Shown: in pieces, positions 4,648 through 20,251 of the stretch
Position numbering within the stretch: position 1 is the stretch's first letter
Layout: each line of letters begins with the position of its first letter
Assembly (NCBI GenBank): GCA_963750165.1
Contig: CAVVPN010000003.1
Span: 2,048,001 to 2,112,000, forward strand
Direction of reading: 5' to 3'
Source of the DNA: an uncultured Gemmataceae bacterium
GTDB taxonomy: Bacteria > Planctomycetota > Planctomycetia > Gemmatales > Gemmataceae
Length of the DNA: 64,000 bases
Translations under genes and position numbers: made by a program
The notes under the pieces: model-generated
Told to the model about the DNA's origin: nothing
Databases searched by the model: none
What the model saw: the letters and a program-made list of their open reading frames with translations, nothing else

Positions 4648-6152
4648 GCGGCGAAAAGACCAATGCCTCCCCAGCGTGGCGGAAGGCGGGGTTGTTTGTT
4701 GACGGCCAACCCCACGCCGATGAAAACCGTTTTCCCCGAGAGGCGCAAGGGTCGGTCGGGGCGTCGTACCCTTCCCGACCACGCAAGCTCCGACCCAGGA
4801 AAAAAACCTCCCTCCTACCTTGAAAACCTTTCCCTCCAAACGGTATCTCGGCGGGCCGCCACTATATTCCAAGTGCGACCCCGCCGAATTTATACGCGTA
4901 CCGTCTGCGAACCTCATGGCGAACGGCGGCGTGTCTCGGTGACACGTCGCCTGTCCGCCGCCAAATTGCCGCCAAAGGAGGCCTTTTCTCCCGAAAAGGC
5001 CTCCTTTGACCGCTTCGCCTCCCGCCAAGGAATGCGGCGCGAGGCCCCGTACCAAGGGAGCCTCGCGCCCGATCTTCCGAACGCTCAAAAAGCCAGTCAG
5101 CCCTTTCGTCGTGGCCAATGTGTCCGGCACCACCCGTTGACACGCCAGCGGGTCGCGACTGCCTTGCCGCGCGCACCGCCCGGTTCCGCCTCTGGCTCCC
5201 GCCACAGGCTTCCCCGACTGTCTACTCAGGCCCCACTCCCAGACTCCAGCATTTCAAGCACGTGGGGGACCAAACCCACGCACCGGCGACCAGGCCGGCC
5301 GCTGGAGCCCTTCCCGCGTTAGCCATCTCCTTCGTCTTCTGGGTCACGTGGCTATCGGGCGTTACCCCGAGGACCTCTGGCCATATGTCCGGGCTCCCGC
5401 CGCGGCATAGTTTCGACAAGGCCGTTCCGTACACGGCTTCGCCATTTCAGGGGGCAGAATATAGAAGCTCCTCCCTTACCCTTCGGCCAGGGTCGTTCGC
5501 CGTCACCACGGGCCGCTATCGGCCTTGAGGTGAGCATTTCGGCATCGTCTCCCAGAGAACTCACCGGCAAGCCCTTACGGGCCTTTCATGGTTGAGCTTT
5601 TCACGTCTCCGCGTTTAACGGAGTACACGGGTCAGTCTTACCCGTTTCCCGCTGTTGCCAGACAGGAAGCTCCCCACGCCGGCCAGCGTTCCACGAACCT
5701 CGCGTAGCGAGGCCCGAGGCCCGCGGGCGGATTTGCGGCCTGCCTGGCAGGACCGCGCACCAGCTTTGCAAGATGGCGGCTTTGGCACGCGCCAAAGGAT
5801 GTCCGCGTCGCCCACATTCAGTGCGAACGCATAGGATAGAACGCTGAGATTGCTCTTCTGGGATACAAAGCCAGGAAGGATTACTTCAGCGAGCCTCCTT
5901 CGAGCACGGACAAGCCACTCTCGCGGCAATCCGGCTCTACTGGCACAGCACGTGACGGCTGGTTAGTGCCATCCTCTTAGCCTGGTTGGTGGCCAGGTTT
6001 ACCGAGTGTGCTGCGCGAACGGAAGACCGTGGTCAAAGCGTTTACGTCATTGACGACCGGCAGGACCTATCCTCGCCCTGCACCAGGGAAACTAGCGCAG
6101 GAGAAGGAACAGGACCATGGATACTTTCCGCCCCGTCGGTGCCTGCCTGATA

Positions 6153-6257
6153 CCGATTATCCGGGGAGGATTCCCCGATTGTGGGGGGAGATTTTACCGA
6201 TAGCCGAGGGAGGAGTTGACGATGTCCGGGGGAGAAAACACCGATGCGCCGGGGAGA
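6153..6257 (+). repeat. Five iterons with exact 22-bp period (putative replication origin)
   Basis: (C/A)CGAT-N5-(G/A)GGGAG at 6153, 6175, 6197, 6219, 6241, directly upstream of rep. Confidence 0.85.
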
Positions 6258-6393
6258 AATAGGCCGTGCAAGGCCTTGATTCTGCTGGTCTTTCGCAGTC
6301 ACAACTATTCATAACTGAAGAACAAAACGGAACAACAACAGGGAGCTGCCGACGTTGTTGCTTTTTTCTTCAAAGCAACACAAGAATAAAAGC

Positions 6394-7848
6394 GTGAAAC
6401 GGACCCCCCAGGCAGTCCCGGCGGAGCCAGCCCAACTCCCCCGCGAACACAACCAGGGCAGAGACGAACTCAACCTGGCGGAGTTCCCGCTCGCCGCCCT
6501 GTCGAATCGGGTCTCACCCGCGAAGAAGACGCTTGTCTTTCAGGACCGAATCCGGGACCGGGGCAATGGAGAGTTCATTACGAGGCGTCTCATCATCACG
6601 GCCTCGGACAGGTACGGACTACCCACCGCGATCGATGATGACATCATCGTGGGCCTCATTCAGCTGACGAAAGCCAACAACAATTTCACCGACCGAGTTG
6701 TCTCATTTAGCCGGTACGCGCTCGTCGAGCTTCTCGGCTGGCCCGACAGTGGTCAGAGTTACCGGCGCATCGAGGAGTCGCTGAAACGCTGGCTGGGAGT
6801 CACGTTGACCTATGAAAGGGCCTGGTGGGACAAGGAGAGCCAGAGTTGGATCGACGAGCACTTTCACATCCTCGACAACGTCACCCTCGTGAATCGCGAA
6901 GCCCGCCGAAGGAAGGCGGCATGCCGTCAACGGGAGCTGCCCCTTTCTTCGTTCTCTTGGAACAGCGTCGTCTTTCGGAGCTTTCAGGCGGAGAATCTGA
7001 AGCGCCTCGACCTGAATCTCTATTTCCAGCTTCGCCTCGCTCCCGCCAAGCGTGCCTTTCGCTTCCTCGACAAGCGCTTCTATCGTCGCAACCGCCTGGA
7101 GTTTGATTTGCGCAATTTTGCCTGCGAGCACGTGGGGCTCAGTCGCAAATATGACGTCGGGAAGATCAAGGAAAAGCTCCAACCCTCCCTCGAAGAACTC
7201 GAGAAGGCAAACTTCATCGAGCCCCTCCGGCGGGATGAGCGCTACGTGAAGGTGGGCGCCGGTGTCTGGCGGATCATCTTCGTAAGGAAGACCTGGGAGA
7301 GCCCGCCCCGCCCTACGAGGACCGCGAGCAGGGCACACGAGGAGGAACTCATCGCTCGCGGCGTGACGCCTGCTACCGCCGTAAAGCTGGTGGCGACCTA
7401 TCCGGCGGAGCGGATCGGCTCGAAAATCGAGGTTCATGACTGGCTCCGCGCGAACAATGAGCAGCGCCTCTCGAAGAATCCGGCGGGCTACCTCGTGCAT
7501 TCGATCCGGAATGACTATGCCCCGCCCGCGGGTTTCGCTTCGAGGGCCGACCGCGAGAAGACGACCCGGGCGAGGCACAGCAAGCGGTCACAGGTTGCCG
7601 ATCGATTGGCCCGACACAAGGCGGAGGCCGACGCTCGGCTCGATGCGCAAAAGGACCCGATTCTCCGCTATTGGAACTCTCTCAGCCCGGTGGAACAGGA
7701 GCGGCTGCGAGACGCCGCTCTCGCCGATGCTGACTCGTGGCTTCTCGAGCGGTACGAGGGCGCGAAACCTCACCTCGCGAAACACTTCCTGCAAATCATC
7801 ATCGACCGGTACATCGAGAAGCGGGCCCTCGCCCTTTCCGCAGAGTGA
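6394..7848 (+). CDS. repA: Plasmid replication initiator protein A
   Basis: GRDELNLAEFPLAAL, GLPTAIDDDIIVGLIQL, FSRYALVELLGW; lies between iterons and parA; start GTG 6394 or TTG 6355. Confidence 0.85.
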   Translation: MKRTPQAVPAEPAQLPREHNQGRDELNLAEFPLAALSNRVSPAKKTLVFQDRIRDRGNGEFITRRLIITASDRYGLPTAIDDDIIVGLIQLTKANNNFTDRVVSFSRYALVELLGWPDSGQSYRRIEESLKRWLGVTLTYERAWWDKESQSWIDEHFHILDNVTLVNREARRRKAACRQRELPLSSFSWNSVVFRSFQAENLKRLDLNLYFQLRLAPAKRAFRFLDKRFYRRNRLEFDLRNFACEHVGLSRKYDVGKIKEKLQPSLEELEKANFIEPLRRDERYVKVGAGVWRIIFVRKTWESPPRPTRTASRAHEEELIARGVTPATAVKLVATYPAERIGSKIEVHDWLRANNEQRLSKNPAGYLVHSIRNDYAPPAGFASRADREKTTRARHSKRSQVADRLARHKAEADARLDAQKDPILRYWNSLSPVEQERLRDAALADADSWLLERYEGAKPHLAKHFLQIIIDRYIEKRALALSAE

Positions 7849-8145
7849 GTGCGCCGCAGTCACCGATGCCTTCTTGTCGGAACTGCGAGACGCCGCCACG
7901 CGCTTTCATCACGACCCTGACGGACATCCCCAATATTTCCCGTGCATTGATGACTCTCCGGCACGCCCGCGGGCGGGCCCGCCGGCAGTCTCGCTCGCCG
8001 GCGGGCGGGCGGTCCCGCAGTCCCGACTGCTCGAAAAGGTATTCTCCACTGAGTTAGGGGCTTGTCGCAATGGCCCCAGGCGCGCTACATCAGGAGGGCA
8101 GGGATCCGGGCACGCCGGAATGCCCGCCGGCATGGAGGCAGGATT

Positions 8146-9024
8146 ATGACTACCAGCAGACTCGGCGCGCTCATCGCCGTCGGCAATCAGAAGGGAGGTG
8201 TCGGCAAGACGACCAATACGGTGCATCTCGCCGCGGCACTCGGGGAAAAGGGTTACGCCGTCCTCATCATCGACCTGGACCCGGGCGCTGGAGCAACGAA
8301 GCACCTCGGCATTCCCGTCCAGAGTTTTGCCGGCACGCTCGAACTGCTGACGACCAGCGAGACGCCACAGACCCTGGCCATCACAGAAGGGATGCCGAGA
8401 GGCGTTCATCTCATCCCGTCCAGGACGCAGCTATCGGAACTCGAGACGCTGCTCTCGAAATTTGTCGATCGGACGAGGATCCTCGACCGCCCGGCCGACC
8501 TGGCTCGGCCGCACTACGACTTCATTTTCCTCGACACTCCGCCCTGGGCGGGAGCGACGACTACGGTTGCGGCCTATGCAGTTGCGGACTGGTTTCTCCT
8601 TTCCGCGTTCCCGCACCCGTTGTCGATCGCGGGCCTCAACGAGGCCTTGAAGGACATCGCAGACGTCCGCATCCAGAGGAACCCCGGCCTCGAGGTTCTT
8701 GGGGTCATTCTCACTTGCGTCGATACCCGGACGAATCTCGCCCGGGACGTTGAGGATCTCGTTACGCGGGAATTGCCGGGGCGGGCGTTTCGGACGATCA
8801 TCACCCAAGCGAACGCTCTGCCCGTACTTTCCGGCAGGGGGAAGACACTGTTCGACAGCAAGGTCTATTCGACCCACAAGGTTACCGAACAGTACCGTAG
8901 CCTGGCAGCGGAGGTCGAGGAGCGGGCGGTGAATCGACAACCCTTCCTCCTTCGCGGAAGGGAGGAACCCGAATCCACTGTGAATGAGGGTGCGGAGCCG
9001 AACCGGGCAATTCTGAACGGATAG
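8146..9024 (+). CDS. parA: ParA family partition ATPase
   Basis: NQKGGVGKTT deviant Walker A, IDLDP, YDFIFLDTPP. Confidence 0.95.
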   Translation: MTTSRLGALIAVGNQKGGVGKTTNTVHLAAALGEKGYAVLIIDLDPGAGATKHLGIPVQSFAGTLELLTTSETPQTLAITEGMPRGVHLIPSRTQLSELETLLSKFVDRTRILDRPADLARPHYDFIFLDTPPWAGATTTVAAYAVADWFLLSAFPHPLSIAGLNEALKDIADVRIQRNPGLEVLGVILTCVDTRTNLARDVEDLVTRELPGRAFRTIITQANALPVLSGRGKTLFDSKVYSTHKVTEQYRSLAAEVEERAVNRQPFLLRGREEPESTVNEGAEPNRAILNG

Positions 9025-9031
9025 AGGGATC

Positions 9032-9457
9032 GTGGCGAAACCATTGACGAGCGCAGTGCCATCGAGCGCGGTTGCCCGACTCCTCGAGCCGGGGGTGGCC
9101 CGAGCGGCCCTTGTGGAGACGCACCCTGTCACTCCACCGGTCGTCGAGAAGACGGGAGAGACACCGGAGATCAAGCGAGAGTTCATCCTGACCCAGACGA
9201 CCGACGACGCGCTGGGGCACCTCACCATTCTCTATTCCAAGGCGACCGGGACGAACGTCACGAACAGTCATCTCCTCCGGGCTCTCCTCAAGGCGCTCGT
9301 GCACGCTATGCCGGAACTCGAGAGGCAGGCTTGGCAGATAGGCAAGCTCAGGCGGCCGAGCAACGCCCGGGGTAGGGAGGCCGAGCGCGAGGAATACGAG
9401 AGGCGCATCGCGGCATCCCTGCTTGCCGGCATGCGGGCAGGCCTGCCGTTGGACTAG
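9032..9457 (+). CDS. ParA-associated protein (candidate centromere-binding partner)
   Basis: Starts 7 bp after parA stop; 141 aa; no ParB motif. Confidence 0.7.
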   Translation: MAKPLTSAVPSSAVARLLEPGVARAALVETHPVTPPVVEKTGETPEIKREFILTQTTDDALGHLTILYSKATGTNVTNSHLLRALLKALVHAMPELERQAWQIGKLRRPSNARGREAEREEYERRIAASLLAGMRAGLPLD

Positions 9458-9849
9458 AGGCGGGGCGGGAAAACCTCGACGCATGCCTTGAGGTGTTTGC
9501 AAGAGTTTCCGATGCCACGCGACCGTATCTGTTTACAGGTCGAGGGTGACAAAGGTACAGAGCGGGACCGAGGGCTGAAGGTGCCTCCCAGCTAGTTCGG
9601 TCGATCAGACCGCAGCAGATTGGCGGAAGAGCGGTTCGTGCTGAGGTGGGGCGGACCGACGCACGCAAGCTCGAGCGCTGTTACCAGGGCCCCCCCCACC
9701 CACGCTGGTCGCCGGCGATGACGTTGCTAACCGGCTGGCACTGCGACGATCGACGGCCAGCCGCCGCGGTGGTGGGCCACCACGTCAACCGTTGTGAGCG
9801 GCCAGGAGTGGGACGCTGGTGTCTGCGGCGCGAAGGAGACGGAGGGCAG

Positions 9850-10028
9850 TCGCTCGCGTGGAGGACTTCGTGGATGATGGTGTCGAGGGTGGCCTGCGGG
9901 CTGAGCTGGTCGCGGATCCGGATCTCCTTGCCCCGCCGCGACGGCTCATCGCACTCCCCCTGCGTGCCGCGGGACAGCTCGCGGGTGAAGCGGAAGCGGT
10001 AGCGTCTGCCCAGAATGGTGACGTGCAC
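9850..10028 (-). pseudogene. Truncated HExxH metallopeptidase-like gene
   Basis: GECDEP..KEIRI..LDTIIHEVLHA, then low-complexity sequence. Confidence 0.45.
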
Positions 10029-10109
10029 GGATGAGTTCCATTAGCGTCCGTGACGAGTTTCCCACAGGGCTGTTGATCTGGCTACGGGGGCCGTGGCAGG
10101 GGCTGGCAC

Positions 10110-10926
10110 CTAACTGGGCTTGGCCGAGTTCAAGCTGTCGGCCAGGGTCCAACCACGCTTCGTCAGCGCGAACGATTCGCCCGTGTCCCCGCGCGGTTCG
10201 AGAAGGCGGCGGCTGACCAAGTCGTTGACGGCCTCGCGGTAGGCCGCCTCAAGGCGGGCGTCATTGCCGTCCACGAGCTGCATCCCGTGCGCGGCGAGGT
10301 CGAAGCCGTGCATGCTCTTGGTCATGGACAGGGTGCCGCGCGGGTCCTTGCCGGTTTCCGCGAGGATGTGCTTCGCCTCGTCGGAGAGGTCGGGTTCGTC
10401 CGGCGGGGCTGGCTTGTCCGGCGGGTCCGGCGTCGTCACCAGTGTCACCACCTTGCCGAGCTTCCTCTGGAGCGACGGCCAAGACCGGTCGAACGCCTTA
10501 CGCAGGAGCCCCTCGTCGTGAGGGGAGCTCAGCCGACCGTTGATGGTCCGGATGAGCCGCCAGGTGTCGTCCTTCTCGAAGACGGTTGCCTGATACTGCC
10601 CGAGCGGAGTGCCGGAAAGGCTCGACGGCTTGACCTCAACCAGGTACGGGCAGATGAGCGAACCCCGCATCGCGTGGGCGATCGCGCCGGCTTCGTAGTA
10701 GAGCCACGACGACTCGATGTTCTCGGGCGTGACGCAGATGAGACACGCGCCGCTGCGCGAGCTGGTCGGAGATCGCGTTGAACCAGGACGTCCCCTTGGT
10801 GATGTCCTCGCTCGACATCCAGGGCTTGACGCCGGGCAGGGCGTCGGGCAGCCACTCGCTGAACGCCTCGGCGGCCTGGCGACTGCCGGGGCGGGACCAG
10901 CTCACAAAGATTTCAAAGTCGGCCAC
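10110..10926 (-). CDS. TIR-domain protein (one frameshift near 10755)
   Basis: IFVSWS, PWMSSEDITKGTSW, then in another frame ACLICVTPENIESSWLYYEAGA with the catalytic Glu; AAGGAGA RBS before GTG 10926. Confidence 0.85.
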
Positions 10927-11312
10927 GGACGATCTCCTTCTGCTTGGCGGGGCCTTTTTGCGCGGGGCTCGCTGCCGACGAGGACGACCTCATTCGCCTC
11001 GGTCCGCAGGCCCTCCTTCTCGCAAATCGCCCTGAGCTTCTCCTTGTGCTCCGGCGACGTCCCCTCGCCGAGGAGGACAATCGTGAGCGCCTGGAGGATC
11101 TTGTCGACGTCGTCTTCGGAGTTCCAGTCGATGGTGCTCAGATACCGCTGGGTCAGCTTCTGTCGGTCGCCGCCGGACCTGGCCGCGGCCTCGGGCCCGA
11201 GCTCGATGCCGGCACCCTGGAACATGTCGTCGATCTGCTGGAGCTTCAGCCCTTCCCAGCCGCTGCAGAACTTCCGGAGGTCGATCTGAAAAGTAGGCGA
11301 CAGCAGAGGCAC
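10902..11312 (-). CDS. Stand-alone AbiJ/Abi-type N-terminal-domain-like protein
   Basis: QQIDDMFQGAGI...GDRQKLTQRYLSTIDWNSEDDVDKIL resembles N-termini of abortive-infection proteins. Confidence 0.5.
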   Translation of the reverse strand: MPLLSPTFQIDLRKFCSGWEGLKLQQIDDMFQGAGIELGPEAAARSGGDRQKLTQRYLSTIDWNSEDDVDKILQALTIVLLGEGTSPEHKEKLRAICEKEGLRTEANEVVLVGSEPRAKRPRQAEGDRPWPTLKSL

Positions 11313-11449
11313 GGCTTGTTCCCTCGGGGAGCCGGGGCTCGCCTCCGGCCCATCTGGTCTGTCGGTTCTTCCATCGCTGATGAGATTCTGACGGCGAATC
11401 GGTCCGCCGGCCGGTTAGCTGAACCGGCCCAGGCGGCACGTCGGATGGG

Positions 11450-12397
11450 TCACCACCCATACTTCTCGCGATGGTCCCGGTCGATCTCGTCCTCCTCCTC
11501 TTCCTCCTCGTCCTCTGGGAGGACGTCGCCCTCGTCCATCGTGAGCAGGACGGCGAGCGTGCCCATGACGGGCACGGGCAGGAACGCCTGCGTCACCTCG
11601 ACGTCGTGGAGATCCTCGCCCCGGTCGAACGTCTGGAACCAGTGGCGCAGCAGGCCGTCTTCCTGGTGTCGGCCGTCGTCGCCTCGTTCAAATGCGGCCC
11701 AGCGGGCCTGCGCCACCGGCGACTCGATGTCCTTCTTGCCGGGATAAATCTTCGCCGCGATCAGCGAGTTCGACGGGAACAGCCAGGCGATGCGGCCCTC
11801 GCGCAGGCCGGCGAGAGCACAGGGCTGGTCGGAAAGGCGGACGCCGCGGCGAGCCGTGCAGAGAAGTGACGCCTGGAACTCGGCGGCAACCTTATCGATC
11901 GTCGCGAGCGTCAACTCGCCGTTGTTCAGCGACCGGTCGACGAGGTGAGTCGGGAGCAGGAGGCTCGCCGCGAAAGCGTCGGCCTCCCGCTCCTTCTGCG
12001 ACGCGTTCTTGAACTCGCCGCTCGACTCGTGGGGCGGCTCGCCGTTCACGAGGTCTTCGTGGTGGCGTTCGAGAAAATAATGACCGAGCTCGTGGCAGAC
12101 CGAGAACCGGGTCCGCGGGTGGTGCTCGCCCTCCGGCATCACGCGGTCGTACTTCGTGTTGTAGTACAGGAGGAACCGCTTCTTCGTCGGCTCATACTCG
12201 AGCTTCCCGTCGTACCGGTCGCCGAGGTCGTCGCCGCCGGTGCGCAGGAACGCTCGCTCCGTCTCTGCGACGGCGAGGGGGTCGATGCGGCCGGTCAGCT
12301 TCAGGCGCTTGACCAGCGCGTCGGCCTCCGCTCCAGCGCGGGCCTGGCACTCCTCGTCGGCCTGCCACTCAAGTTTCGTCTTCCTCGGGCTCGTCAT
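11450..12397 (-). CDS. ImmA/IrrE family metallo-endopeptidase
   Basis: RTRFSVCHELGHYFL (HExxH), EREADAFAASLLLP, acidic tail. Confidence 0.93.
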   Translation of the reverse strand: MTSPRKTKLEWQADEECQARAGAEADALVKRLKLTGRIDPLAVAETERAFLRTGGDDLGDRYDGKLEYEPTKKRFLLYYNTKYDRVMPEGEHHPRTRFSVCHELGHYFLERHHEDLVNGEPPHESSGEFKNASQKEREADAFAASLLLPTHLVDRSLNNGELTLATIDKVAAEFQASLLCTARRGVRLSDQPCALAGLREGRIAWLFPSNSLIAAKIYPGKKDIESPVAQARWAAFERGDDGRHQEDGLLRHWFQTFDRGEDLHDVEVTQAFLPVPVMGTLAVLLTMDEGDVLPEDEEEEEEDEIDRDHREKYGW

Positions 12398-12728
12398 CGC
12401 TCAGCATCTTTCTCTTCAGGTCGTCTTCCTTCTTGTCAGTCTCGGGGGTCTTCTCGCCCTCGTTGCGATGGATCTGATACCTGCCTCGGGCGGCCTCGTC
12501 GACAACCTCGTCGCCGTCCCACTCGCCGTCCTGGTCTGGGGTCCACTCTTCGTCCCCGCTAGACGTCGCCGAATCGACAATTTCTTTGATGCGTTCCTCC
12601 GAGATCTTCACCTCGGGGGCGTCGCGGTACGCCGCCGCGGCCTCCTCCGGGGTGAGCGGGCAGAAACCCTGCTTCTTGCGCAGCTTGGGGGCCAGGTCTT
12701 CCCACAGCTTGTCGGCGTCGGAACTCAT
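12369..12728 (-). CDS. Acidic hypothetical protein (candidate anti-sigma factor)
   Basis: ATGA-coupled to sigma stop, overlaps protease start; D/E-rich. Confidence 0.65.
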   Translation of the reverse strand: MSSDADKLWEDLAPKLRKKQGFCPLTPEEAAAAYRDAPEVKISEERIKEIVDSATSSGDEEWTPDQDGEWDGDEVVDEAARGRYQIHRNEGEKTPETDKKEDDLKRKMLSDDEPEEDET

Positions 12729-13353
12729 TTGCTCCCTTTCGTGCTGTCCTTGCGGGCTTCGCGCTCCAGAATCCTACTCCTGATTTTTTCTCTGACCTTG
12801 CTCCTTGTCGCGTAGACCGTGTTCAGGCTCTTGCTGTTCTCGGTGGCGAGGCGGTGGGAGTCAGCGGTGCCGCCGACGGCAAGGTCTGCCCGGGCCACGA
12901 TCTGCTCGAAGCCCGTCAGTTCGTTTTCGATGATGTCTTCCATCATTTCGACCCGGGTCATCTCCGCGGACCCGCACTCCGGGGGGTCGTCTTCGCAATG
13001 GTCCGCGGGGTCGTGCTCCGGGTCGAACTCCAGTTCCTTGGCGACGTGCTTCTTCTCCCCGCGGATGATGCTCAGGGCGGCCCGCTGGACGATCCTGATG
13101 AGCCAGCTCCCGAAGTCCCCTTCCGACGGCTTGAAGCGGTCCGCGAATCGCCAGACGTTGTGGAACGCGTCGGTGACAGCCTGGTCCATCTCGGGCTCGC
13201 GCAGGCGCCACGGAACTGGGTCATGAGGTAGCCCATCGCCCTGGGCGTACACCTCCTGACCAGCAGCGTCAGAGCGTCCTTGTCCCGGTCTTCCGCAATG
13301 CGGCGCACCAGGTCAACGTCGATGTCCTCGTCCGGCGGCGTCTCTGTCGCCAT
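12725..13353 (-). CDS. ECF-type sigma-70 factor (one frameshift near 13205)
   Basis: LVRRIAEDRDKDALTLLVRR; DQAVTDAFHNVWRFADRF..GDFGSWLIRIVQRAAL (region 2); SLNTVYATRSKVREKIR (region 4); GGAGG RBS. Confidence 0.88.
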
Positions 13354-13375
13354 TGAAACCTCCCGCCTCCTGAAC

Positions 13376-13396
13376 GAATACGCACCATCCTTAACC
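13376..13396 (-). promoter_or_regulatory. Motif copy upstream of sigma gene (GGTTAAGGatggtgCGTATTC)
   Basis: Matches copies at 13426, 13509 and 15588. Confidence 0.6.
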
Positions 13397-13425
13397 GCGA
13401 CCTTACCGGAACAACACGTCGTTCT

Positions 13426-13540
13426 GGTTAAGGTTCCAGCGTAATCGATGGCGGGCGGGAAGTCACTGCGACTCGGCCCCGAAAAAAAGCGCCGGGCCGG
13501 TTAAGGCCGGTTAAGGCCCCCCTTAATCCAGGGTGAGGGC
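13426..13540 (+). promoter_or_regulatory. Two motif copies upstream of the Ubl operon
   Basis: GGTTAAGGttccagCGTAATC (13426) and GGTTAAGGccccccTTAATCcagggtgagggc (13509, one base short); tandem GGCCGGTTAA. Confidence 0.6.
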
Positions 13541-13620
13541 GGGAAGTGCCGCCCGACGGTAAGCCCCGAACGCGGGGCAGGCTCTAGCCGTCGCCGGAAC
13601 AGGCGACAGGAAGGGGTTTT

Positions 13621-13902
13621 ATGTCCACCACCGCTGAAGAGGCCCGTGCGGGCCACGACCAGCACGGGCACCACGCCGACCGCTGCCACACGGTTGACAT
13701 CCACGTCAACAACCACAAGGTCGTCCTCCAGCCGGGCAAGTACGACGTGCCCACCTTCAAGAAGGTCGCCGGCGTGCCGCAGGCCGACGACCTGGAAGAG
13801 CTGGTGAACTGCAAGCTCCGGCCGGTCGCCGAGGACGCGACCATCCACATCCAGGGCTGCGAGGTGTTCATCTCCCACGTCAAGGACGGCGGTGCCTCCT
13901 GA
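13621..13902 (+). CDS. Ubiquitin-like (multiubiquitin-type) protein
   Basis: Beta-grasp pattern VDIHVNN..V...DATIHIQGCEVFISH; C-terminal DGGAS; first gene of E2/JAB/E1 operon. Confidence 0.8.
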   Translation: MSTTAEEARAGHDQHGHHADRCHTVDIHVNNHKVVLQPGKYDVPTFKKVAGVPQADDLEELVNCKLRPVAEDATIHIQGCEVFISHVKDGGAS

Positions 13903-13919
13903 GCTTTGAGGTGACCGCC

Positions 13920-14264
13920 ATGTCGTACCCCGAGGATCAGGTGGCGGAGCTGAAGCTGCTCTGCCCCGGCGTTTGCGAGGTCAAGGAGGCAGGCTGCATC
14001 CTCTACTTTCTTCCGGGGCTGATCCTCCCGGACGGGTGCAACCCGGTGCGCACGGACGCGCTCCTCTGCCCGAGCGCCCGCGACGGCTACGCGTCGCGGC
14101 TGTTCTTCGCGGAAAGGGTGGAGTCGAAGGCCGCGGCTGTGCCCAACTGGAACGCGAACGGTGTCCGCATCGCCGAGCGGAACTGGCACGCCTACAGCTG
14201 GAAGACGAACCCCAACCTGCGGCTCGCGCAGATGGTCGCGGCCCACTTGAGGGCCCTCCGATGA
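13920..14264 (+). CDS. Prokaryotic E2-like protein (family E-like)
   Basis: LILPDGCNP..DALLCP..GY; RNWHAYSW; position between Ubl and JAB. Confidence 0.7.
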   Translation: MSYPEDQVAELKLLCPGVCEVKEAGCILYFLPGLILPDGCNPVRTDALLCPSARDGYASRLFFAERVESKAAAVPNWNANGVRIAERNWHAYSWKTNPNLRLAQMVAAHLRALR

Positions 14265-14770
14265 CAGTCAAGGTGCGCATCCCGCGCAAGCTGCTCGACA
14301 ACGTGCGGGCCGACCTGTCGCGCCCGCACGCTTTTGCCGCCGAGCGAATCGGCTTCCTGTTCGGCCGGCTCGCCGCCGCCGACCAGGCCCTCGTGCTGCT
14401 GACCGGCTACGAGCCGGTGGCAGACGACCGCTACATCAACGACCCCTGGTCGGGTGCGCGCATCGACAGCACCGCCATCCGCGGCGCGATGCAGAGCGTC
14501 CTGGACCGGGGCGAGGGCGGCTTCCACGTACACTTGCACCACTGGCCCGGCCGCCCCGTGCTGAGCCGGATGGACGCCAAGGAGATACCCCCGGTCGTGA
14601 CGGGCCTGCGCCGCGTCGGCCTGGCCCAGGCGCACGGCATCGTGCTGCTCCACGAAGTGGAATGCGCGGCCTGGGTCTGGTTGCCCGGCAAGGAGGAAGC
14701 CGTCGAGGCGGAGTCGGTCTCCGTCGTCGGGTTCCCCCTCTCAATCTTCGGAGGAACGAGCCGTGAGTGA
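14261..14770 (+). CDS. JAB/MPN metallo-peptidase (deubiquitinase-like)
   Basis: ERIGFLF (Glu), HVHLH...SRMD JAMM motif; ATGA-coupled. Confidence 0.8.
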   Translation: MTVKVRIPRKLLDNVRADLSRPHAFAAERIGFLFGRLAAADQALVLLTGYEPVADDRYINDPWSGARIDSTAIRGAMQSVLDRGEGGFHVHLHHWPGRPVLSRMDAKEIPPVVTGLRRVGLAQAHGIVLLHEVECAAWVWLPGKEEAVEAESVSVVGFPLSIFGGTSRE

Positions 14771-15572
14771 CGATCGATTCTCGAGACAGTCCTTCCTCGG
14801 CGAACACAGCCAGGCCGCCATCGAGCGCGCCGTCGTCGGCGTCGTCGGCCTCGGCGGCGGCGGCGGCCACGTCGTGCAGCAGCTCGCCCACATCGGCTTC
14901 ATGAACTATCGCTTGTTCGACCGCGACCACGCGGAGGAGTCGAACCTGAACCGTCTGGTCATCGCCACGGAGGCGGATGCGACGGCGGAGACGCTGAAGG
15001 TGGAGTTGGCGAAGCGCAGGATCTTGTCCGTGCGCAGCGCCGCCAAGGTCGAGACGTTCCCCTGCCGCTGGCAGGATCGGCCCGAGCATCTGCGCGGCTG
15101 CGACGTCGTCTTCGGCTGCGTAGACGGGTTCGCCGAGCGGCGCGAGCTCGAGGTCGCCTGCCGCCGGCACCTGGTGCCGCTCATCGACATCGGCATGGAC
15201 GTCCACGTCGTCGGCGACGAACCGCCGCGGATGGGCGGCCAGGTGATCCTGTCGATGCCCGGCTTCCCCTGCATGACGTGCCTCGGCTTCCTGAGCGAGG
15301 CGAGCCTGGCGCGCGAGGCCGGCCGGTACGGCGACGCCGGCCCGCGGCCCCAGGTCGTGTGGCCGAACGGGGCGCTGGCATCGACGGCGGTCGGGATCGC
15401 CGTCGATCTCGTGACCGACTGGACGCGCAGGATGCGCGGCGCGGTGTACCTGATGTACGACGGCAACACCGGCACCATCACGCCGCACCCGCGGCTTGTC
15501 CACCACGACGGCTCGCCCTGCCCCCACTTCCCGCCGGACCAGGTCGGCGCGCCGGTCTTCAAGAAACTGTGA
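14763..15572 (+). CDS. ThiF/E1-like adenylyltransferase
   Basis: RFSRQ, VGLGGGGG, DRDHAEESNLNRL, KVE, GCVD, PCMTC. Confidence 0.93.
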   Translation: MSDDRFSRQSFLGEHSQAAIERAVVGVVGLGGGGGHVVQQLAHIGFMNYRLFDRDHAEESNLNRLVIATEADATAETLKVELAKRRILSVRSAAKVETFPCRWQDRPEHLRGCDVVFGCVDGFAERRELEVACRRHLVPLIDIGMDVHVVGDEPPRMGGQVILSMPGFPCMTCLGFLSEASLAREAGRYGDAGPRPQVVWPNGALASTAVGIAVDLVTDWTRRMRGAVYLMYDGNTGTITPHPRLVHHDGSPCPHFPPDQVGAPVFKKL

Positions 15573-15587
15573 CGGTCGGTTTTTTCC

Positions 15588-15620
15588 GGTTAAGGCCCGC
15601 GTGTAATCAGGGTGAAGGGC
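15588..15620 (+). promoter_or_regulatory. Motif copy upstream of DUF1883 gene
   Basis: GGTTAAGGcccgcgTGTAATCagggtgaagggc, close to the 13509 copy including its downstream extension. Confidence 0.6.
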
Positions 15621-15672
15621 GGCCGAAGGCGCGCCGCCCGCCCTGTTTCTCGGTTCAGTGGGGGGCTTCATC

Positions 15673-15930
15673 GTGAAGTTCTTGCATTGGCAGGTGGACG
15701 CGGTCGATGGCACCGTCGTCAGGGTCGAGCTGGACGCTCAGGCCAACGTGATGCTCATGGATGACAGCAACTTCTCGTCGTACCGCAGCGGCCGGCAGTA
15801 CCGCTACTTCGGTGGCCACGCCAAACGGTCGCCAGTCACGCTGGCCGCGCCGCACACCGGCCGCTGGCACGTCGTCGTTGACCTCGGCGGCTACGCTGGC
15901 CACGTCAACGCGAGCGTGTCGGTGCTGTAG
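15673..15930 (+). CDS. DUF1883 domain protein
   Basis: ANVMLMDDSNFSSYRSGRQYRYFGG...SP...PHTGRWHVVVDLGG. Confidence 0.85.
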   Translation: MKFLHWQVDAVDGTVVRVELDAQANVMLMDDSNFSSYRSGRQYRYFGGHAKRSPVTLAAPHTGRWHVVVDLGGYAGHVNASVSVL

Positions 15931-15950
15931 CCGCGAGTGCGAAACGACAA

Positions 15951-15978
15951 GGCCTCGGTCTCCCTAACGACCGAGGCC
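15951..15978. terminator. Hairpin between convergent genes
   Basis: GGCCTCGGTC-N8-GACCGAGGCC. Confidence 0.55.
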
Positions 15979-15985
15979 CGTGATG

Positions 15986-16108
15986 TCATTTCATCTCTTC
16001 GGTCTTCTGCGGCGGCTTCCGTCGCCGGTCGAGCAAGGCGAGGGCCAGGGTCGCCACTGCGGCGACTGCGCTTGCGATCGTCGCCATTCCAACTGCGAAT
16101 TCGAGCAT
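15986..16108 (-). CDS. 40-aa single-TM peptide
   Basis: MLEFAVGMATIASAVAAVATLALALLDRRRKPPQKTEEMK; GGAGAAGG RBS; below ORF-track cutoff. Confidence 0.55.
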   Translation of the reverse strand: MLEFAVGMATIASAVAAVATLALALLDRRRKPPQKTEEMK

Positions 16109-16502
16109 GAGCCTTCTCCGAATGCCAGTTACCGGCATCCGGGGAGTCAAACGATTTTGAACTGAGTCAGATCGTTATAGGCTGGCACTCGGCGCTGGCG
16201 CGTGGCTCCGTCGCTGGCTTTGGCCCCTGACCTCCCGCGCGTGGGCGGATGAGGTGCTCGGCACTCGCACTGGACCCTGCCGATGGCTCTGGCTCTTGGC
16301 CGTGGTCGTGTCTGACGGACCCTCGCCGGCATGCCACCGTTCCGGGCGAGCTGCGCTCGCCCTTCCTCAATTATACTTCGGCGGACGGTGGTAATAATTT
16401 GAAATGGGACACGGTGCCAGCTCCTGAACCCCCGATCAGCGTGACGTGACTATTGAGTTTGACGTATTGCGCAAGAAATCGACCTCGAGCGAGGACCTAT
16501 AG

Positions 16503-17399
16503 ATGCTTCCTTTTGAAGACCAGGCGCGCGCGGACGTGGAAGCGGATCATCACAAGGAACTGGCCGAGAGCCGCGAGCTTCTCGGGCTCGCCTTGGACAT
16601 GATCGGCAGCGATGGCCAGGGCGGTCTCCGCATCCCCTCTGAGCCGGTGCCGGGGGTGACCGACAGGGCGAGGTCGTTGGCGCTCGGTCTCTTCGCAAAG
16701 GCGTGCAAACAGTTCCGCGGCATCATCATCCTCGCCGAGCGCGGCTTCGGGGACGAGGTGACCGTCCTGACGCGGTCCCTGTTCGAGACGACGCTCGCGA
16801 TGAACTTCATCATGAACGAGAACGTCGCGCTCAAGAGGGAGGGGAAACCCTTCGACCCAGACCCGTCGCGTCCGCTCGACACCGACTTCCGCACGCTCAT
16901 CTACGGCGCGCACTCCGCCTTCACGCAGGCCAAGCGGTACCGGCAGTGGGGCGAGCGACCGGAACTGCGCCCGAGCATCGGTCTGCGCGGCGCTCCGGAG
17001 GCTATCGCCGCCCAGACGGCCGCAGCCCGTGACGCGGTCGGCGAGAAGTGGTGGGAGGCTCTCAAGGGAGGACAGGCCGGTCTGTCGGTCAGAAACCTGG
17101 CCGACTCGCTCGGGGTACTCTCCTACTACCTCGTGGTCTACGGCGACCAGTCTGAAGTGGCGCACGCGGGCGATGGCCTGATGCACTTCGATCTCGAGGA
17201 CGACACCAACCACGGGGCGCTCGACCTCTGCCCGTCACCTGACGGGATCGGCGGCCTCCTGCATCTCGCGGGGCTTGTGTTCCTCGGCACACTCACGGGC
17301 ATCCACAACCGGCTAAAGTTCGGGGATGCGGTTGACAAGAAGCTCGACGGTTTCGCCGCACGCCTCGGCGTGCCGGCAGGCAATGAGGTTCGATCATGA
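16503..17399 (+). CDS. DUF5677 (HEPN-like) domain protein
   Basis: GIIILAERGF...LTRSLFE; late YYLVVYGDQSEVAH motif. Confidence 0.7.
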   Translation: MLPFEDQARADVEADHHKELAESRELLGLALDMIGSDGQGGLRIPSEPVPGVTDRARSLALGLFAKACKQFRGIIILAERGFGDEVTVLTRSLFETTLAMNFIMNENVALKREGKPFDPDPSRPLDTDFRTLIYGAHSAFTQAKRYRQWGERPELRPSIGLRGAPEAIAAQTAAARDAVGEKWWEALKGGQAGLSVRNLADSLGVLSYYLVVYGDQSEVAHAGDGLMHFDLEDDTNHGALDLCPSPDGIGGLLHLAGLVFLGTLTGIHNRLKFGDAVDKKLDGFAARLGVPAGNEVRS

Positions 17400-18265
17400 A
17401 ATATAGGGAGTACAGCATCTTCTATTCGTGGCAGAGCGACGCCGACCCTGCCACGAACTGGGAGTTCATCCGTGGCGCGCTCGATGTAGCGGTCGAGGAG
17501 ATCAAGCAGCGCAAGGGCTTCGACATCCCGGTCGTCGATTCCGGAATGGAGCGAGTCGGCGGCACGCCCGAGGTGGCGACCGTCATGTTTGACAAGATCC
17601 GCGGCGCGGCCATCTTCGTCGGCGACGTCTCGCTCGTCGGGGAGATCAAGCCCCACGGTAACAAGTCGACTAAGAAGACGGCGAATCCGAACGTGCTCAT
17701 GGAGATGGCCTACGCCGGCGCGAAGCTGGGCTGGCAGCGGGTGATCTGCGTCATGAACCAGGCGTTCGGCCGGGCCGAGAAGCTGCCCGTCGACATCCGC
17801 AACCGACGCTGGCCGGTGCGTTACAGGATGCCGCCGGACGACAAGACGACAGCCGAGCAGGTGAGGGCGAAGCTGGCGGAGGACCTGAAGACCGCCATCG
17901 ATGCGATCATCTACGTGGACGACCAGGCGGTCGCCGACGCGGTCCGCCGGTTCGACTCCAACTGCATCAGCGTGGTCGCGGCCTCGCGGTTCCACCCGAG
18001 CTTCCACGCGCCGCGGGCCAACCAGGTGACGATCGGATCGCCAACCGGCATGGACACCCTGGCGCTGAACGCGGCCATCCCGAGGCTCCTTGACCTCGGC
18101 CTGATCCACTGCGACTTCGACAGCCGGCAGGAGCTCTTCGCCTACCATTGGACCTGGCTGGGGCGGATGTTGATCCGCCAGCACTGGCCCAACGACATCC
18201 CTGAGTGGATTCTGCAGATCGACCGCGAGTCGCCGGCCGCCGGGTACGAGCAGCGACCGCATTGA
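17396..18265 (+). CDS. TIR-like / nucleoside deoxyribosyltransferase-fold protein
   Basis: IFYSWQSD, IFVGDVS, NPNVLMEMAYA, LPVDIRNRR. Confidence 0.75.
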   Translation: MKYREYSIFYSWQSDADPATNWEFIRGALDVAVEEIKQRKGFDIPVVDSGMERVGGTPEVATVMFDKIRGAAIFVGDVSLVGEIKPHGNKSTKKTANPNVLMEMAYAGAKLGWQRVICVMNQAFGRAEKLPVDIRNRRWPVRYRMPPDDKTTAEQVRAKLAEDLKTAIDAIIYVDDQAVADAVRRFDSNCISVVAASRFHPSFHAPRANQVTIGSPTGMDTLALNAAIPRLLDLGLIHCDFDSRQELFAYHWTWLGRMLIRQHWPNDIPEWILQIDRESPAAGYEQRPH

Positions 18266-18352
18266 CTATTGGATGCGCCGATGCCGCCGGTGCCGGAAGG
18301 GTTATGGAAGGGAAATGCCTGCGCGGCGTGCAAAACGCGCATCAGGGACACC

Positions 18353-18546
18353 TGTCACGAGCGGTTTGGAACTGAGCCACTTTCGCGGAGCCACTTGAGC
18401 CACCCTCGGAGCCGCTGGGGCAGGGGCTGGTCGCCGTAAGTCCAAGTACGGGTTCCTCTTCTCTGTTGCCGGTAGCTGCCAATGGGGCCTGCGGGGTGGC
18501 TCACTTCTGGCCGCGAAAGTGGCTCACTTTCTGACCGCGATCGACA
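18353..18546. mobile_element. 194-bp IS21-type miniature element (MITE)
   Basis: TGTC...GACA ends; 53-bp imperfect terminal inverted repeats with repeated TGAGCCAC; GACACC duplicated at 18347-18352 and 18547-18552. Confidence 0.88.
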
Positions 18547-19024
18547 GACACCCCCACCGCCGGCCGCGACCCCAGAAAAGGCCCGGTTTTCACGCATGTT
18601 TTGCACGGCTTGCACCGGAGAAGCCGCTTCTGCATCGGCAAGCAATGAACCGAAACAGTTTCGGGGGTGAGCGCTTTGGTCTTCTCGACCTCCGCGCGCA
18701 AGCCGAAAGGACCAGCGCGAATCGGACCGAAACCCCTCGGGCGATGTGACCGAATGCAGCGCGCTCACTGTTCAGGCAGGCCAGCCTGTAGGCTATAGAA
18801 TGACTTCGCCGTCCACGAGGCCCTGAGCCAGGCCGGGCGAGCCGACGTGATCGACGACGGCTGCGACTGCCTAATCCCGTCACATCCGCATAAGGAGGCG
18901 ATCGAGGCCCCGCTGGCGGCAGGCCAACCGGGCGGTGAACGGGCCGACCAGTGTTCGTTCACCGCGACCCCAGGGCCCGGGAGGTCGGCACCACTGTGTC
19001 CAGGTGCGGCCCCCGAGGCGGACA

Positions 19025-20251
19025 TCAGACCCGGCCGCGCACCAGGTCGATGAGCCGGCCAAGGACGCGCTCCCCGTCGGCGCGTAGGCCGTTGTGCTCG
19101 TATTCATCGGTAACCCACGGCCGCAGGCCCCGGATCGCGACGGCCGTCTCCTCCGCGAAACGCCGCTCGACGTACAGGTCGTTGACGTAAATCGTCGCGG
19201 CAACAGGGACCTCGTTGCGGGCAAGCTGAGCGGCGTCGTACAGGCGCGGCCAGGGGTGCTCCGCCAGGATCTCGGCAGCGGCGCCGTGGGAGTGCAACCC
19301 GGAGAAGTCCTGCCACATCCAGCGGAACACGTGCTCGGCCGTGAAGTAGCGCTCCTGGGCGACCTCGTCGGGCATCGTCCGCTCGGCCGACCAGCGCGTG
19401 GGCACCCCGTCAGCGTACGACGACTCGTGGAGCGTGGCGTAGATCGGGTTCCTCCCGAACCGCGCCGCCTCGTCCACGTCGTGGAGAAATGCCCGCGAGC
19501 CGGGCGGCAGCTCGACGATGTGGTGGATCTGCTCGAAGCCGGCGCTGTCGCCGAGTTTGAAGCCGAGCTGGAGGAAGCGGCGCGCGGTGAGCCGGTCGCC
19601 GGACGGGAGCCGGACGTCCTCGTCATCGAGCCGGTGGAGGATTTCCCTGACCCGTTCGCGGTCCCCAGGGTAGCGCTGGAAGTAGGCTCTGTTCTTCTCG
19701 ATCGCGCGGGCCCACGTCGCGGCGTACACGTCATCGACGGGCCGGCCGACCGGCGAGAGGCCGCCGGTGATGAGCGCCTCGCGCAGGCCTTCCGGGGCAA
19801 ACGAGAGGTAGGTCATTGTGCAGAAACCGCCGAAGCTCTGGCCGAGGACGCTCCACCGATCGACGCCGAGTTCGTGCCGGATCAGTTCCGCGTCGCGGAT
19901 AATGCCATCGGCGCGCAGGTGAGTCATGTACGCAGCCTGCTCTTGCGGCGTTGAGCCAGGAATATCGCCAACCGGAGTCGAGCGACCGGTGCCGCGCTGG
20001 TCGATGAGCAGCACCCGGTAGTCGGCGATCGCCCGCTTCTGCCAGCCCGACGGGGGTGCGGTGGGTCGGGTCGCCTCAAAGCCTGGGCCCCCCTGAAGGA
20101 ACAGCAAATACGGTCGGTCGAGGCCATCGGGCGCAGCAAGTTCGCGAGTGAAAAGAGTGATCTTCTCGCCATCGGGCATCGAGTGGTCCAACGGGACCGA
20201 GTGGGCTCGCTCGGTGAGGACCGCGCCGGGAACGCGGTAGGTAACTGCCAT
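19025..20251 (-). CDS. pip: Proline iminopeptidase (alpha/beta hydrolase)
   Basis: VPLDH, FLQGGPG, DQRGTGRS, GQSFGGF, YVNDLYV, EYEHNGL. Confidence 0.92.
   Translation of the reverse strand: MAVTYRVPGAVLTERAHSVPLDHSMPDGEKITLFTRELAAPDGLDRPYLLFLQGGPGFEATRPTAPPSGWQKRAIADYRVLLIDQRGTGRSTPVGDIPGSTPQEQAAYMTHLRADGIIRDAELIRHELGVDRWSVLGQSFGGFCTMTYLSFAPEGLREALITGGLSPVGRPVDDVYAATWARAIEKNRAYFQRYPGDRERVREILHRLDDEDVRLPSGDRLTARRFLQLGFKLGDSAGFEQIHHIVELPPGSRAFLHDVDEAARFGRNPIYATLHESSYADGVPTRWSAERTMPDEVAQERYFTAEHVFRWMWQDFSGLHSHGAAAEILAEHPWPRLYDAAQLARNEVPVAATIYVNDLYVERRFAEETAVAIRGLRPWVTDEYEHNGLRADGERVLGRLIDLVRGRV

Follow-up and report, generated by a model that had tools for sequence, protein, structure and literature searches.

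The 64,000-nucleotide stretch of DNA analysed here (the window) covers positions 2,048,001 to 2,112,000 of contig CAVVPN010000003.1 from an uncultured Gemmataceae bacterium (GenBank assembly GCA_963750165.1), a member of the phylum Planctomycetota whose genome, 93% complete, comprises 9.62 Mb in 12 contigs. Between positions 10,110 and 15,930 two gene sets lie head-to-head (Table 1). On the plus strand, four tightly packed genes, for a candidate ubiquitin-like protein (Ubl), an E2-like protein, a JAB/JAMM-like peptidase candidate and an E1, are followed by a gene for a DUF1883 protein. On the minus strand, the genes of an extracytoplasmic function (ECF)-like sigma factor, of a strongly acidic protein and of a CapP-type zinc peptidase precede those of a 136-aa protein and of a TIR protein. 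The sigma, acidic and CapP genes are closely packed and conserved among related loci, where they stand before exchangeable cargo operons; a private and directional motif lies in front of cassette and cargo, and no helix-turn-helix (HTH) repressor accompanies them. Because this cassette is head-to-head with the Ubl operon and shares its private motif, the sigma factor is likely set free by the peptidase to transcribe the operon.

An initial annotation of the window, made from the letters alone, had placed an HExxH peptidase of the ImmA/IrrE type, a sigma factor and an acidic 119-aa protein on the minus strand. All three assignments hold, by the profile matches listed in Table 1 for the peptidase and the sigma factor and by an isoelectric point (pI) of 4.3 for the acidic protein. 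The three genes are joined without gaps: the sigma stop codon overlaps the acidic start codon in an ATGA, and the end of the acidic gene overlaps the start of capP by 29 nt.

Table 1. Features of the locus, with positions in the window (ORF, open reading frame)
Feature	Position	Strand	Basis or remark
RepA-like replication initiator	6355-7848		left of locus; RPA 8.4e-13
ParA gene	8062-9024		left of locus
TIR gene, split by a frameshift	10110-10926	minus	N-terminal ORF 10636-10926, C-terminal ORF 10110-10670
136-aa protein	10902-11312	minus	'Abi-NTD-like' in the initial annotation
CapP-type M78 zinc peptidase	11450-12397	minus	Pfam Peptidase_M78 1.8e-12; PADLOC capP 7.6e-41; PDB 7t5t 5.7e-7
119-aa acidic protein, candidate anti-sigma	12369-12728	minus	family conservation, gene overlap, complex prediction
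ECF-like sigma factor, divergent, split	12725-13353	minus	Pfam Sigma70_r2 1.3e-7
Motif A, GGTTAAGG atggtg CGTATT	13377-13396	minus	faces sigma operon; TTAAGG core starts 41 nt before sigma start codon
Motif B, GGTTAAGG ttccag CGTAAT	13426-13445	plus	faces Ubl operon
Motif C, two tandem GGTTAAGG copies, then TTAATC	13499-13528	plus	faces Ubl operon
Ubl candidate, 93 aa, ending in GGAS	13621-13902	plus	gene order, C-terminus
E2-like protein, 117 aa	13911-14264	plus	gene order; language-model lead to Prok-E2_E
JAB/JAMM-like peptidase candidate, 169 aa (AERIG...HVHLHHWPGRPVLSRMD)	14261-14770	plus	motif read in translation
E1, ThiF/MoeB-type, 269 aa	14763-15572	plus	ThiF 2e-27
Motif D, GGTTAAGG cccgcg TGTAAT	15588-15607	plus	between E1 and DUF1883
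DUF1883 protein, 90 aa	15658-15930	plus	Pfam 6.3e-29; own motif copy

The cassette was compared in 15 loci, the window included; the closest named relatives of the window locus are Gemmataceae and other Planctomycetota metagenome-assembled genomes. The related loci bear numbers between L001 and L021. CapP directly follows the acidic gene in all 13 loci whose contig goes on, the contig ending in the remaining two. Twelve of the 15 have a full-length sigma gene, counting the split copy of the window and that of L017. In 11 it stands immediately before the acidic gene, whereas L017 has an rve-family insertion sequence (IS) element (8090-9754) between the two. Sigma remnants alone are left in L005 and L006, and L004 has no sigma gene.

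What lies head-to-head with the cassette changes from locus to locus. The window, L001, L003 and L021 carry the Ubl-E2-JAB-E1 operon; L021 comes from a contig predicted to be viral, where a serine recombinase adjoins it, and the search of a viral collection gave one locus only. In L002 the cargo is a complete Type III CBASS (an antiphage signalling system based on cyclic oligonucleotides) with a Trip13-like AAA protein (4.9e-17), a HORMA protein (bacHORMA_2 2.6e-63), a CD-NTase (SMODS 7.8e-19) and a SAVED protein (5.2e-23). L015 has a PD-(D/E)XK nuclease with a UvrD-like helicase and L009 a truncated DncV/SMODS-like gene, weakly matched below the cut-off (E 0.003-0.006), while the remaining loci show small genes with no assignment. 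The linkage of the triad to the Ubl operon, on which the initial annotation had built, is therefore found again in L001, L003 and L021, but is not exclusive, as the triad also fronts CBASS and other genes. In short, sigma, acidic protein and CapP constitute a conserved, portable regulatory cassette. Downstream of the cassette, L002 continues as a defence island (11675-19585) with AbiEi/AbiEii, DUF6361, a PLD-like gene and a helicase gene.

Cassette and cargo are also connected by a short motif. The sequence GGTTAAGG has five copies in the window where 0.75 would be expected, five being reached in 0 of 100 shuffles, and all copies fall within two intergenic gaps of the locus: four exact copies in the 267 nt between sigma and Ubl genes and the fifth in the 85 nt between E1 and DUF1883. 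Each of them is directed at the gene downstream, the inner tandem copy having TTAATC after it. In its strict form, TTAAGG-N6-CGTA(A/T)T, the motif is found three times in the whole genome, always at this locus, and its reversed control not once. Equivalents of motif C are present in L001, L002 and L003, motif D recurs at the corresponding position of L001 (7169, minus strand), and related loci show a like arrangement both with Ubl and with CBASS cargo. Within more distant loci the motif letters co-vary on both sides, giving GATTAAGG-N6-GGTAT in L003, [GA]ATTAAGG-N6-AGTAT in L009, GTTAAGA-N6-G[AG]TAT in L010, CCTTAAGG-N6-CGTAT in L016 and GATTAAGA-N6-[AG]GTATT in L021. A relaxed form, searched in the 205,884 bases of 12 records, gave 23 matches, 20 of which lie in sigma/cargo gaps and two before DUF1883, with a single copy outside the expected places (L001 15679). 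Moreover, in nine loci the distance from the sigma-side copy to the start codon downstream is 41-46 nt, and a scan for sigma70-type promoters over positions 10000-16200 returned 0 sites.

Judged from the sequence, the position, direction and co-variation of the motif are what the cognate promoter of a private sigma factor would be expected to show; its 6-nt spacing does not fit, as the -35 and -10 blocks of ECF promoters lie roughly 16-17 nt apart. A different possibility is that the motif is an operator, to which the sigma-like protein or the HTH domain internal to CapP would bind as a transcription factor, leaving transcription to the sigma factors of the host. The block spacing, unlike that of the sigma70 family in general, and the presence of an HTH domain inside CapP would be in keeping with such a function. 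On the other hand, an asymmetric motif always directed at its downstream gene, a short, constant distance ahead of the sigma start codon, in a region where the scan gave no sigma70-type promoter and next to a gene whose product is modelled with a two-domain ECF fold, makes an operator improbable, and a promoter read by the cassette's own sigma factor is preferred.

Intact orthologues of the sigma factor measure 204-243 aa and Sigma70_r2 was verified in 11 relatives; region r4_2 exceeded its cut-off in L015 only, among the window and 11 relatives tested, and the NCBIfam sigma70-ECF model gave 25.8 bits, below the cut-off of 42.9. The structural model of the L001 orthologue (predicted local distance difference test, pLDDT, 77.9) shows two helical domains, with residues 101-132 as a disordered, acidic linker. 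Its best Foldseek match is SigK (4nqw, 1.1e-4), with further matches to sigmaE (6jbq, 1or7), AlgU and CnrH, that is, to ECF sigma factors mostly solved together with their anti-sigmas. As modelled, the protein has sigma2 and sigma4 domains alone, as is the case for ECF (group 4) sigma factors.

Its acidic neighbour holds 37 aspartate and glutamate against 18 basic residues. A conserved N-terminal three-helix module (approximately residues 1-60, pI 4.6) is followed by an acidic tail in which the motifs RN.G and L..DDD are kept. A word search collected 19 clusters of this family, all of whose members are annotated as 'hypothetical', whereas a profile search of 1.84 billion proteins found 326 representatives at E <= 0.001, 140 of them at E <= 1e-10; of 401 genomes sampled from the phylum, 4 have the family, that of the window among them. 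No Pfam, PADLOC or NCBIfam family and no usable Atlas match was obtained for the protein, and the XRE-type HTH domain that is the hallmark of CapH was not found in it with Pfam, NCBIfam or PADLOC. The zinc motif HxxxCxxC is one mark of known anti-sigma factors; the acidic protein, with its single cysteine, does not carry it.

The structure of a complex was predicted from the L001 sigma factor and the L001 acidic partner, with a custom alignment for each. The score was 0.75 (runs 0.78, 0.75 and 0.75) and that of the best control 0.00; among solved complexes 116 of 157 attain this mark of 0.75, among mismatched pairs 2 of 215. The partner had a pLDDT of 60-61 and contact agreement was at least 73%. 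In the predicted interface, residues 2-58 of the acidic protein contact both sigma2 (22-93) and sigma4 (136-197), with the acidic tail outside the reported interface, and the residues of lowest error (9, 12-17, 47, 50, 51) belong to the most conserved part of the family. The N-terminal three-helix module is thus predicted to bind between sigma domains 2 and 4 in the manner of an anti-sigma factor, which agrees, at the level of a model, with the binding that the initial annotation had supposed. In solved sigma/anti-sigma complexes, contact with both domains represents the inhibitory mode.

A physical connection of the acidic family with the peptidase is suggested by natural fusions: at least three proteins (P0135, P0147 and P0112), among the 150 representatives listed, join it to Peptidase_M78. 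The model of one such fusion (pLDDT 86.6) begins with the three-helix module and continues with a disordered acidic stretch and a helix, before a CapP-like body. In P0112 the N-terminal module is carried by a different M78 peptidase (HECGH), and in P0150 by a 6-O-methylguanine DNA methyltransferase DNA-binding domain (8.1e-12). Such fusions suit an adaptor as well as a substrate. Hence it can also be argued that CapP cuts the sigma factor itself, for example in its 30-residue acidic linker, or some other protein, the acidic protein being an adaptor or co-activator. The linker of the L001 sigma is indeed disordered and acidic in the model, and no cleavage site is readable from the sequence. We hold this reading to be unlikely, however, given that the predicted interface spans sigma2 and sigma4 in what would be the inhibitory mode, and that in CapH/CapP, IrrE/DdrO and ImmA/ImmR it is the small neighbour protein that is cut. 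The acidic protein as substrate of CapP is the preferred assignment.

The PADLOC capP match of the peptidase covers profile positions 6-231 of 242. Its zinc site is made of HELGH with the third ligand in EREADAF, both invariant in 10 of 10 cassette CapPs; no cysteine lies between these two segments, where an invariant His123 is found instead. The Peptidase-HTH-GAF architecture was recognised on the model of a relative, the fusion P0135, which is 44% identical to the CapP of the window; this model aligns to Thauera CapP (7t5t; Foldseek 6.6e-14, 296 columns, TMt 0.68) and to PprI bound to single-stranded DNA (ssDNA) (8sln; 2.0e-9). An HTH protein that could act as its repressor substrate was sought between 9.4 and 16.2 kb in the main ORFs and in 53 alternative ORFs, and none was found, as the initial annotation had stated.

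The following mechanism would account for these features. The acidic protein would hold the ECF-like sigma factor inactive, as the predicted complex suggests. By analogy with CapH/CapP and IrrE/DdrO, ssDNA arising from damage or infection would activate CapP, which would then cut the acidic protein; a possible place for the cut is close to the conserved RN.G segment that precedes the C-terminal helix. Once freed, the sigma factor would join RNA polymerase and fire motif A, and thereby its own operon, in a positive feedback, as well as motifs B and C in front of the Ubl operon and motif D in front of DUF1883. We consider it probable, with moderate confidence, that CapP destroys an acidic clamp in this way and that the freed sigma factor transcribes its own operon, the Ubl operon and DUF1883. 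The small size of the motif and a private regulon of three sites in 9.6 Mb render this hypothesis directly testable by a reporter.

Several observations weigh against this mechanism. The acidic protein matches no known anti-sigma family in Pfam, NCBIfam or Atlas. The score of its complex with sigma is a model confidence and, solved sigma/anti-sigma complexes being common, the pass may partly reflect likeness to them. The distance of 6 nt between the motif blocks, unlike ECF promoter spacing, leaves their reading by a sigma2/sigma4 protein unexplained, and L015 and L017 yielded no such motif. In L015, moreover, where the regions 5680-8138 and 9019-16958 hold the head-to-head nuclease and helicase genes together with an entire type I Bub operon (Multi_ubiq 5.7e-12, Prok-E2_E 4.1e-34, a JAB-ThiF fusion, DUF6527 2.5e-16), this canonical Bub operon lies behind CapP, tail-to-tail, and not head-to-head, with the triad. 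The cysteine switch described for the CapP of E. coli is not present in that of the window; according to the preprint of Calloji et al. (2026), not all CapP homologues carry this switch. Public sequencing runs were searched and none contains the locus; no run shared more than 0.14 of the sampled words. Finally, the sigma and TIR reading frames are both broken in this genome as assembled, and the intact sigma allele is a single contig of depth 2.5, the sole one across the frameshift in eight runs.

The break in the sigma gene is a one-base deletion in a G run (plus strand CC at 13208-13209), at a place where the GGG run is intact in L001 and L002. Deletions in homopolymer runs are a frequent assembly error in long-read genomes. 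When sequence from eight public runs was compared at both frameshift sites, a 229-nt contig of a soil metagenome run (X1) was found to have the extra base and to be identical to the window at all other positions. Because this otherwise identical contig has the missing base, the sigma frameshift, which the initial annotation had feared might be real and inactivating, most likely goes back to an error of assembly or to variation between strains. Programmed frameshifting was rejected in view of the non-slippery site and of the intact allele. In the TIR gene there is one base too many near 10700, and no read or contig from the eight runs covers that site.

These breaks would take on another meaning if the cassette worked in relatives but was decaying here, with both frameshifts real and the Ubl operon silent or uncontrolled. 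Two frameshifts do fall within 3 kb, the TIR one is not a simple homopolymer slip, and relatives degrade too, as seen from the remnants in L005 and L006, the missing sigma gene of L004 and the IS element of L017. With the missing G present in the metagenome contig, the sigma deletion located in a G run, where long-read assemblies often err, and the remaining genes and every motif copy intact, decay appears a minor possibility, somewhat less remote than the alternatives weighed above.

The plus-strand series from Ubl to DUF1883 named in the initial annotation is confirmed by Pfam for E1 and DUF1883 (2.8e-26 for the L001 orthologue of the latter), while Ubl, E2 and JAB are recognised by motifs and gene order only: none of these three candidates has a match in Pfam, NCBIfam, PADLOC or PDB sequences. 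The Ubl candidate keeps its C-terminal GG(A/S)S in the window, L001 and L003, and the JAB candidate shows a visible E...HxH...SxxD motif of the JAMM type. For the E2-like protein, a language-model lead in Atlas points to Prok-E2_E (score 0.91, 31% of the cluster's members); its family counts 105 clusters, none with a Pfam domain, and 0 of 37 members match Pfam. S96, N79, W80 and Y60 are invariant in the family, C53 nearly so. From gene order, the GG(A/S)S C-terminus, the JAMM-type motif and the language-model lead, the Ubl, E2 and JAB identities are likely. E1 has a single adenylation domain with a tyrosine, and no cysteine, in the crossover loop, this tyrosine lying within [RK]YG in the window, L001 and L003; among solved structures, it comes closest to the E1 domain of Citrobacter BubCD (3.4e-13).

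Homology of the E2-like protein to BubB is not claimed on sequence statistics. A weak BubB match (E 0.01) was set aside because a true BubB homologue was part of the source profile; with the clean family profile no BubB match was obtained, and the alignment of the family with a true BubB homologue by hhalign was not significant (E 0.064). In a MAFFT alignment the family has an asparagine where BubB has its catalytic serine (WSRH).

The leader of the Ubl mRNA (window 13550-13620) can form two hairpins, the second of which ends at the ribosome-binding site. Sites of the same kind are seen in L001 (9131-9204), L003 (9164-9237) and L021 (7162-7235), and the hairpin arms vary between loci yet pair, for example GTCGCC..GGCGAC and GTCGCA..TGCGAC. 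RNAalifold on seven mixed cargo leaders gave no consensus structure, the leader coordinates of L009 and L010 being probably off. L001 also has a second pair of JAB-like and ThiF genes downstream of CapP (13002-14832).

Among described systems, the window operon is nearest to Bub, yet it has the defining feature neither of Bub nor of Bil. Its E1 finds its nearest solved relative in the E1 domain of BubCD. Ye et al. (2024, 10.1101/2024.11.21.623953) report that all Bub operons have bubE, that CapH and CapP flank 168 of 544 of them and that no phage protection has been found yet for related Bub operons. DUF6527/BubE (PF20137) gave 0 matches in the window genome, taken at its 93% completeness, in the L001 genome and in the L021 record; the L003 genome has one, on another contig. 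Because its genome has no DUF6527, the window operon falls outside the definition of Bub; unlike type I Bub it also has four separate genes, DUF1883 at its end and an E2-like protein that does not align significantly to BubB. With Type I/II Bil it shares the Ubl-E2-JAB-E1 order in four separate genes; but the Bil E1 is described as IAD-AAD-CYS, and the window operon falls outside Bil because its 269-aa E1 is a single ThiF domain. Divergent CapH/CapP genes occur at 25 of 162 Type II Bil operons, according to a preprint (Chambers et al. 2023, PMC10557695). By context, the window operon may serve a Bub-related pathway, directed against phage or stress. No literature was found on DUF1883 in such a context.

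The closest counterpart of the cassette is CapH/CapP, the standard example of damage-induced transcription of an immune operon through loss of a repressor. Both employ the same peptidase family, stand divergently upstream of CBASS, Bil or Bub-type operons, have a small partner gene directly 5' of the peptidase gene and give rise to natural partner-peptidase fusions. They differ in that the partner in the cassette is strongly acidic and without HTH, a dedicated sigma factor is included and CapP has no cysteine switch; the logic would be the release of an activator with feedback, and not the loss of a repressor. In other words, the cassette is likely a positive-control variant of the CapH/CapP repressor switch. 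IrrE/PprI-DdrO of Deinococcus and ImmA/ImmR of ICEBs1 and phage likewise use an M78 peptidase with a GAF-like domain and damage-triggered cleavage of a neighbouring regulator, which for the cassette is a proposal by analogy; unlike the cassette, their substrates are XRE-type HTH repressors and no sigma factor takes part. In the CalpL-CalpT-CalpS system of type III CRISPR, an immune signal reportedly switches on a protease, which cleaves an anti-sigma factor and so sets an ECF-type sigma free. CalpL, however, is a Lon-SAVED protein activated by cyclic tetra-adenylate (cA4), not an M78 peptidase, and has no sequence relation to the cassette proteins. The ECF sigma/anti-sigma pair DdvS/DdvA of Myxococcus controls a defence island of CBASS and CRISPR (PMC11506125), with a transmembrane anti-sigma and no M78 peptidase in the module, unlike the cassette.

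The initial annotation knew of no description of such wiring. Something of it is on record: one sentence of Lau et al. (2022, 10.1101/2022.04.27.489752) places a sigma70-family factor alongside capH and capP in 24 CBASS systems, but our literature search found no paper that describes an M78/COG2856 peptidase wired to an anti-sigma factor or that studies the sigma factor beside capH/capP. If true, a sigma-releasing version would offer a tight off-state, positive feedback and a promoter orthogonal to that of the host, and would explain how toxic immune operons travel between hosts with their own switch; it would also supply a compact orthogonal induction part and a handle to induce, and thus study, a Ubl conjugation operon. 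More tentatively, and somewhat short of an even chance in our estimate, the whole may be a portable 'sense-and-amplify' module composed of CapP, an unannotated anti-sigma family and an ECF-like sigma acting on a compact non-canonical promoter (TTAAGG-N6-CGTAAT), which hops between immune operons (CBASS, nuclease-helicases, Ubl) and here drives a BubE-less Ubl system with Ubl, E2 and JAB families that databases do not recognise.

As to the remaining genes of the minus strand, a TIR gene is present, as first annotated, but in two frames: its halves match the PADLOC TIR-TM profile (6.2e-15 over positions 2-55 and 1.4e-15 over 86-169) on either side of the frameshift. The label 'Abi-NTD-like' for the 136-aa protein was not upheld, no Pfam family being found at E <= 0.01 and none in PADLOC or NCBIfam at meaningful E-values. 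Both genes occur only in the window and are absent from every related locus (L001-L021). The inclusion of TIR, or of the 136-aa gene, in the regulon is likewise not borne out, as both are missing from the relatives and have no motif copy. Our guess is that both genes may be read through from the CapP transcript, because no terminator or motif lies between CapP and them.

The locus is part of a Planctomycetota chromosome, flanked by plasmid-like RepA/ParA genes, and lies in a mobile, defence-island-like stretch, because RepA and ParA stand on its left and DUF5677 and TIR-like genes on its right. From such a setting one might suppose that the triad controls a mobile element, with ImmA/ImmR-like excision or induction, and that the Ubl operon is merely a fellow passenger; RepA and ParA upstream, the serine recombinase by L021 on its predicted viral contig and an integrase by L003 would be consistent with this. 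Nevertheless, motif copies stand directly before cargo operons and DUF1883, and the strict motif is nowhere else in the genome and in front of neither RepA nor ParA, which leaves this the least probable of the alternatives, and a very improbable one compared with control of the cargo by the cassette. The region 6355-9024, with the RepA-like and ParA genes, resembles the backbone of a plasmid-like or integrative element within a chromosome contig. On the right side (window 16503-18265), the gene of a DUF5677 protein (1.6e-20) overlaps that of a 289-aa TIR-like protein (CAP12-PCTIR_TIR 0.016, below the cut-off), and the two may form a second defence gene pair.

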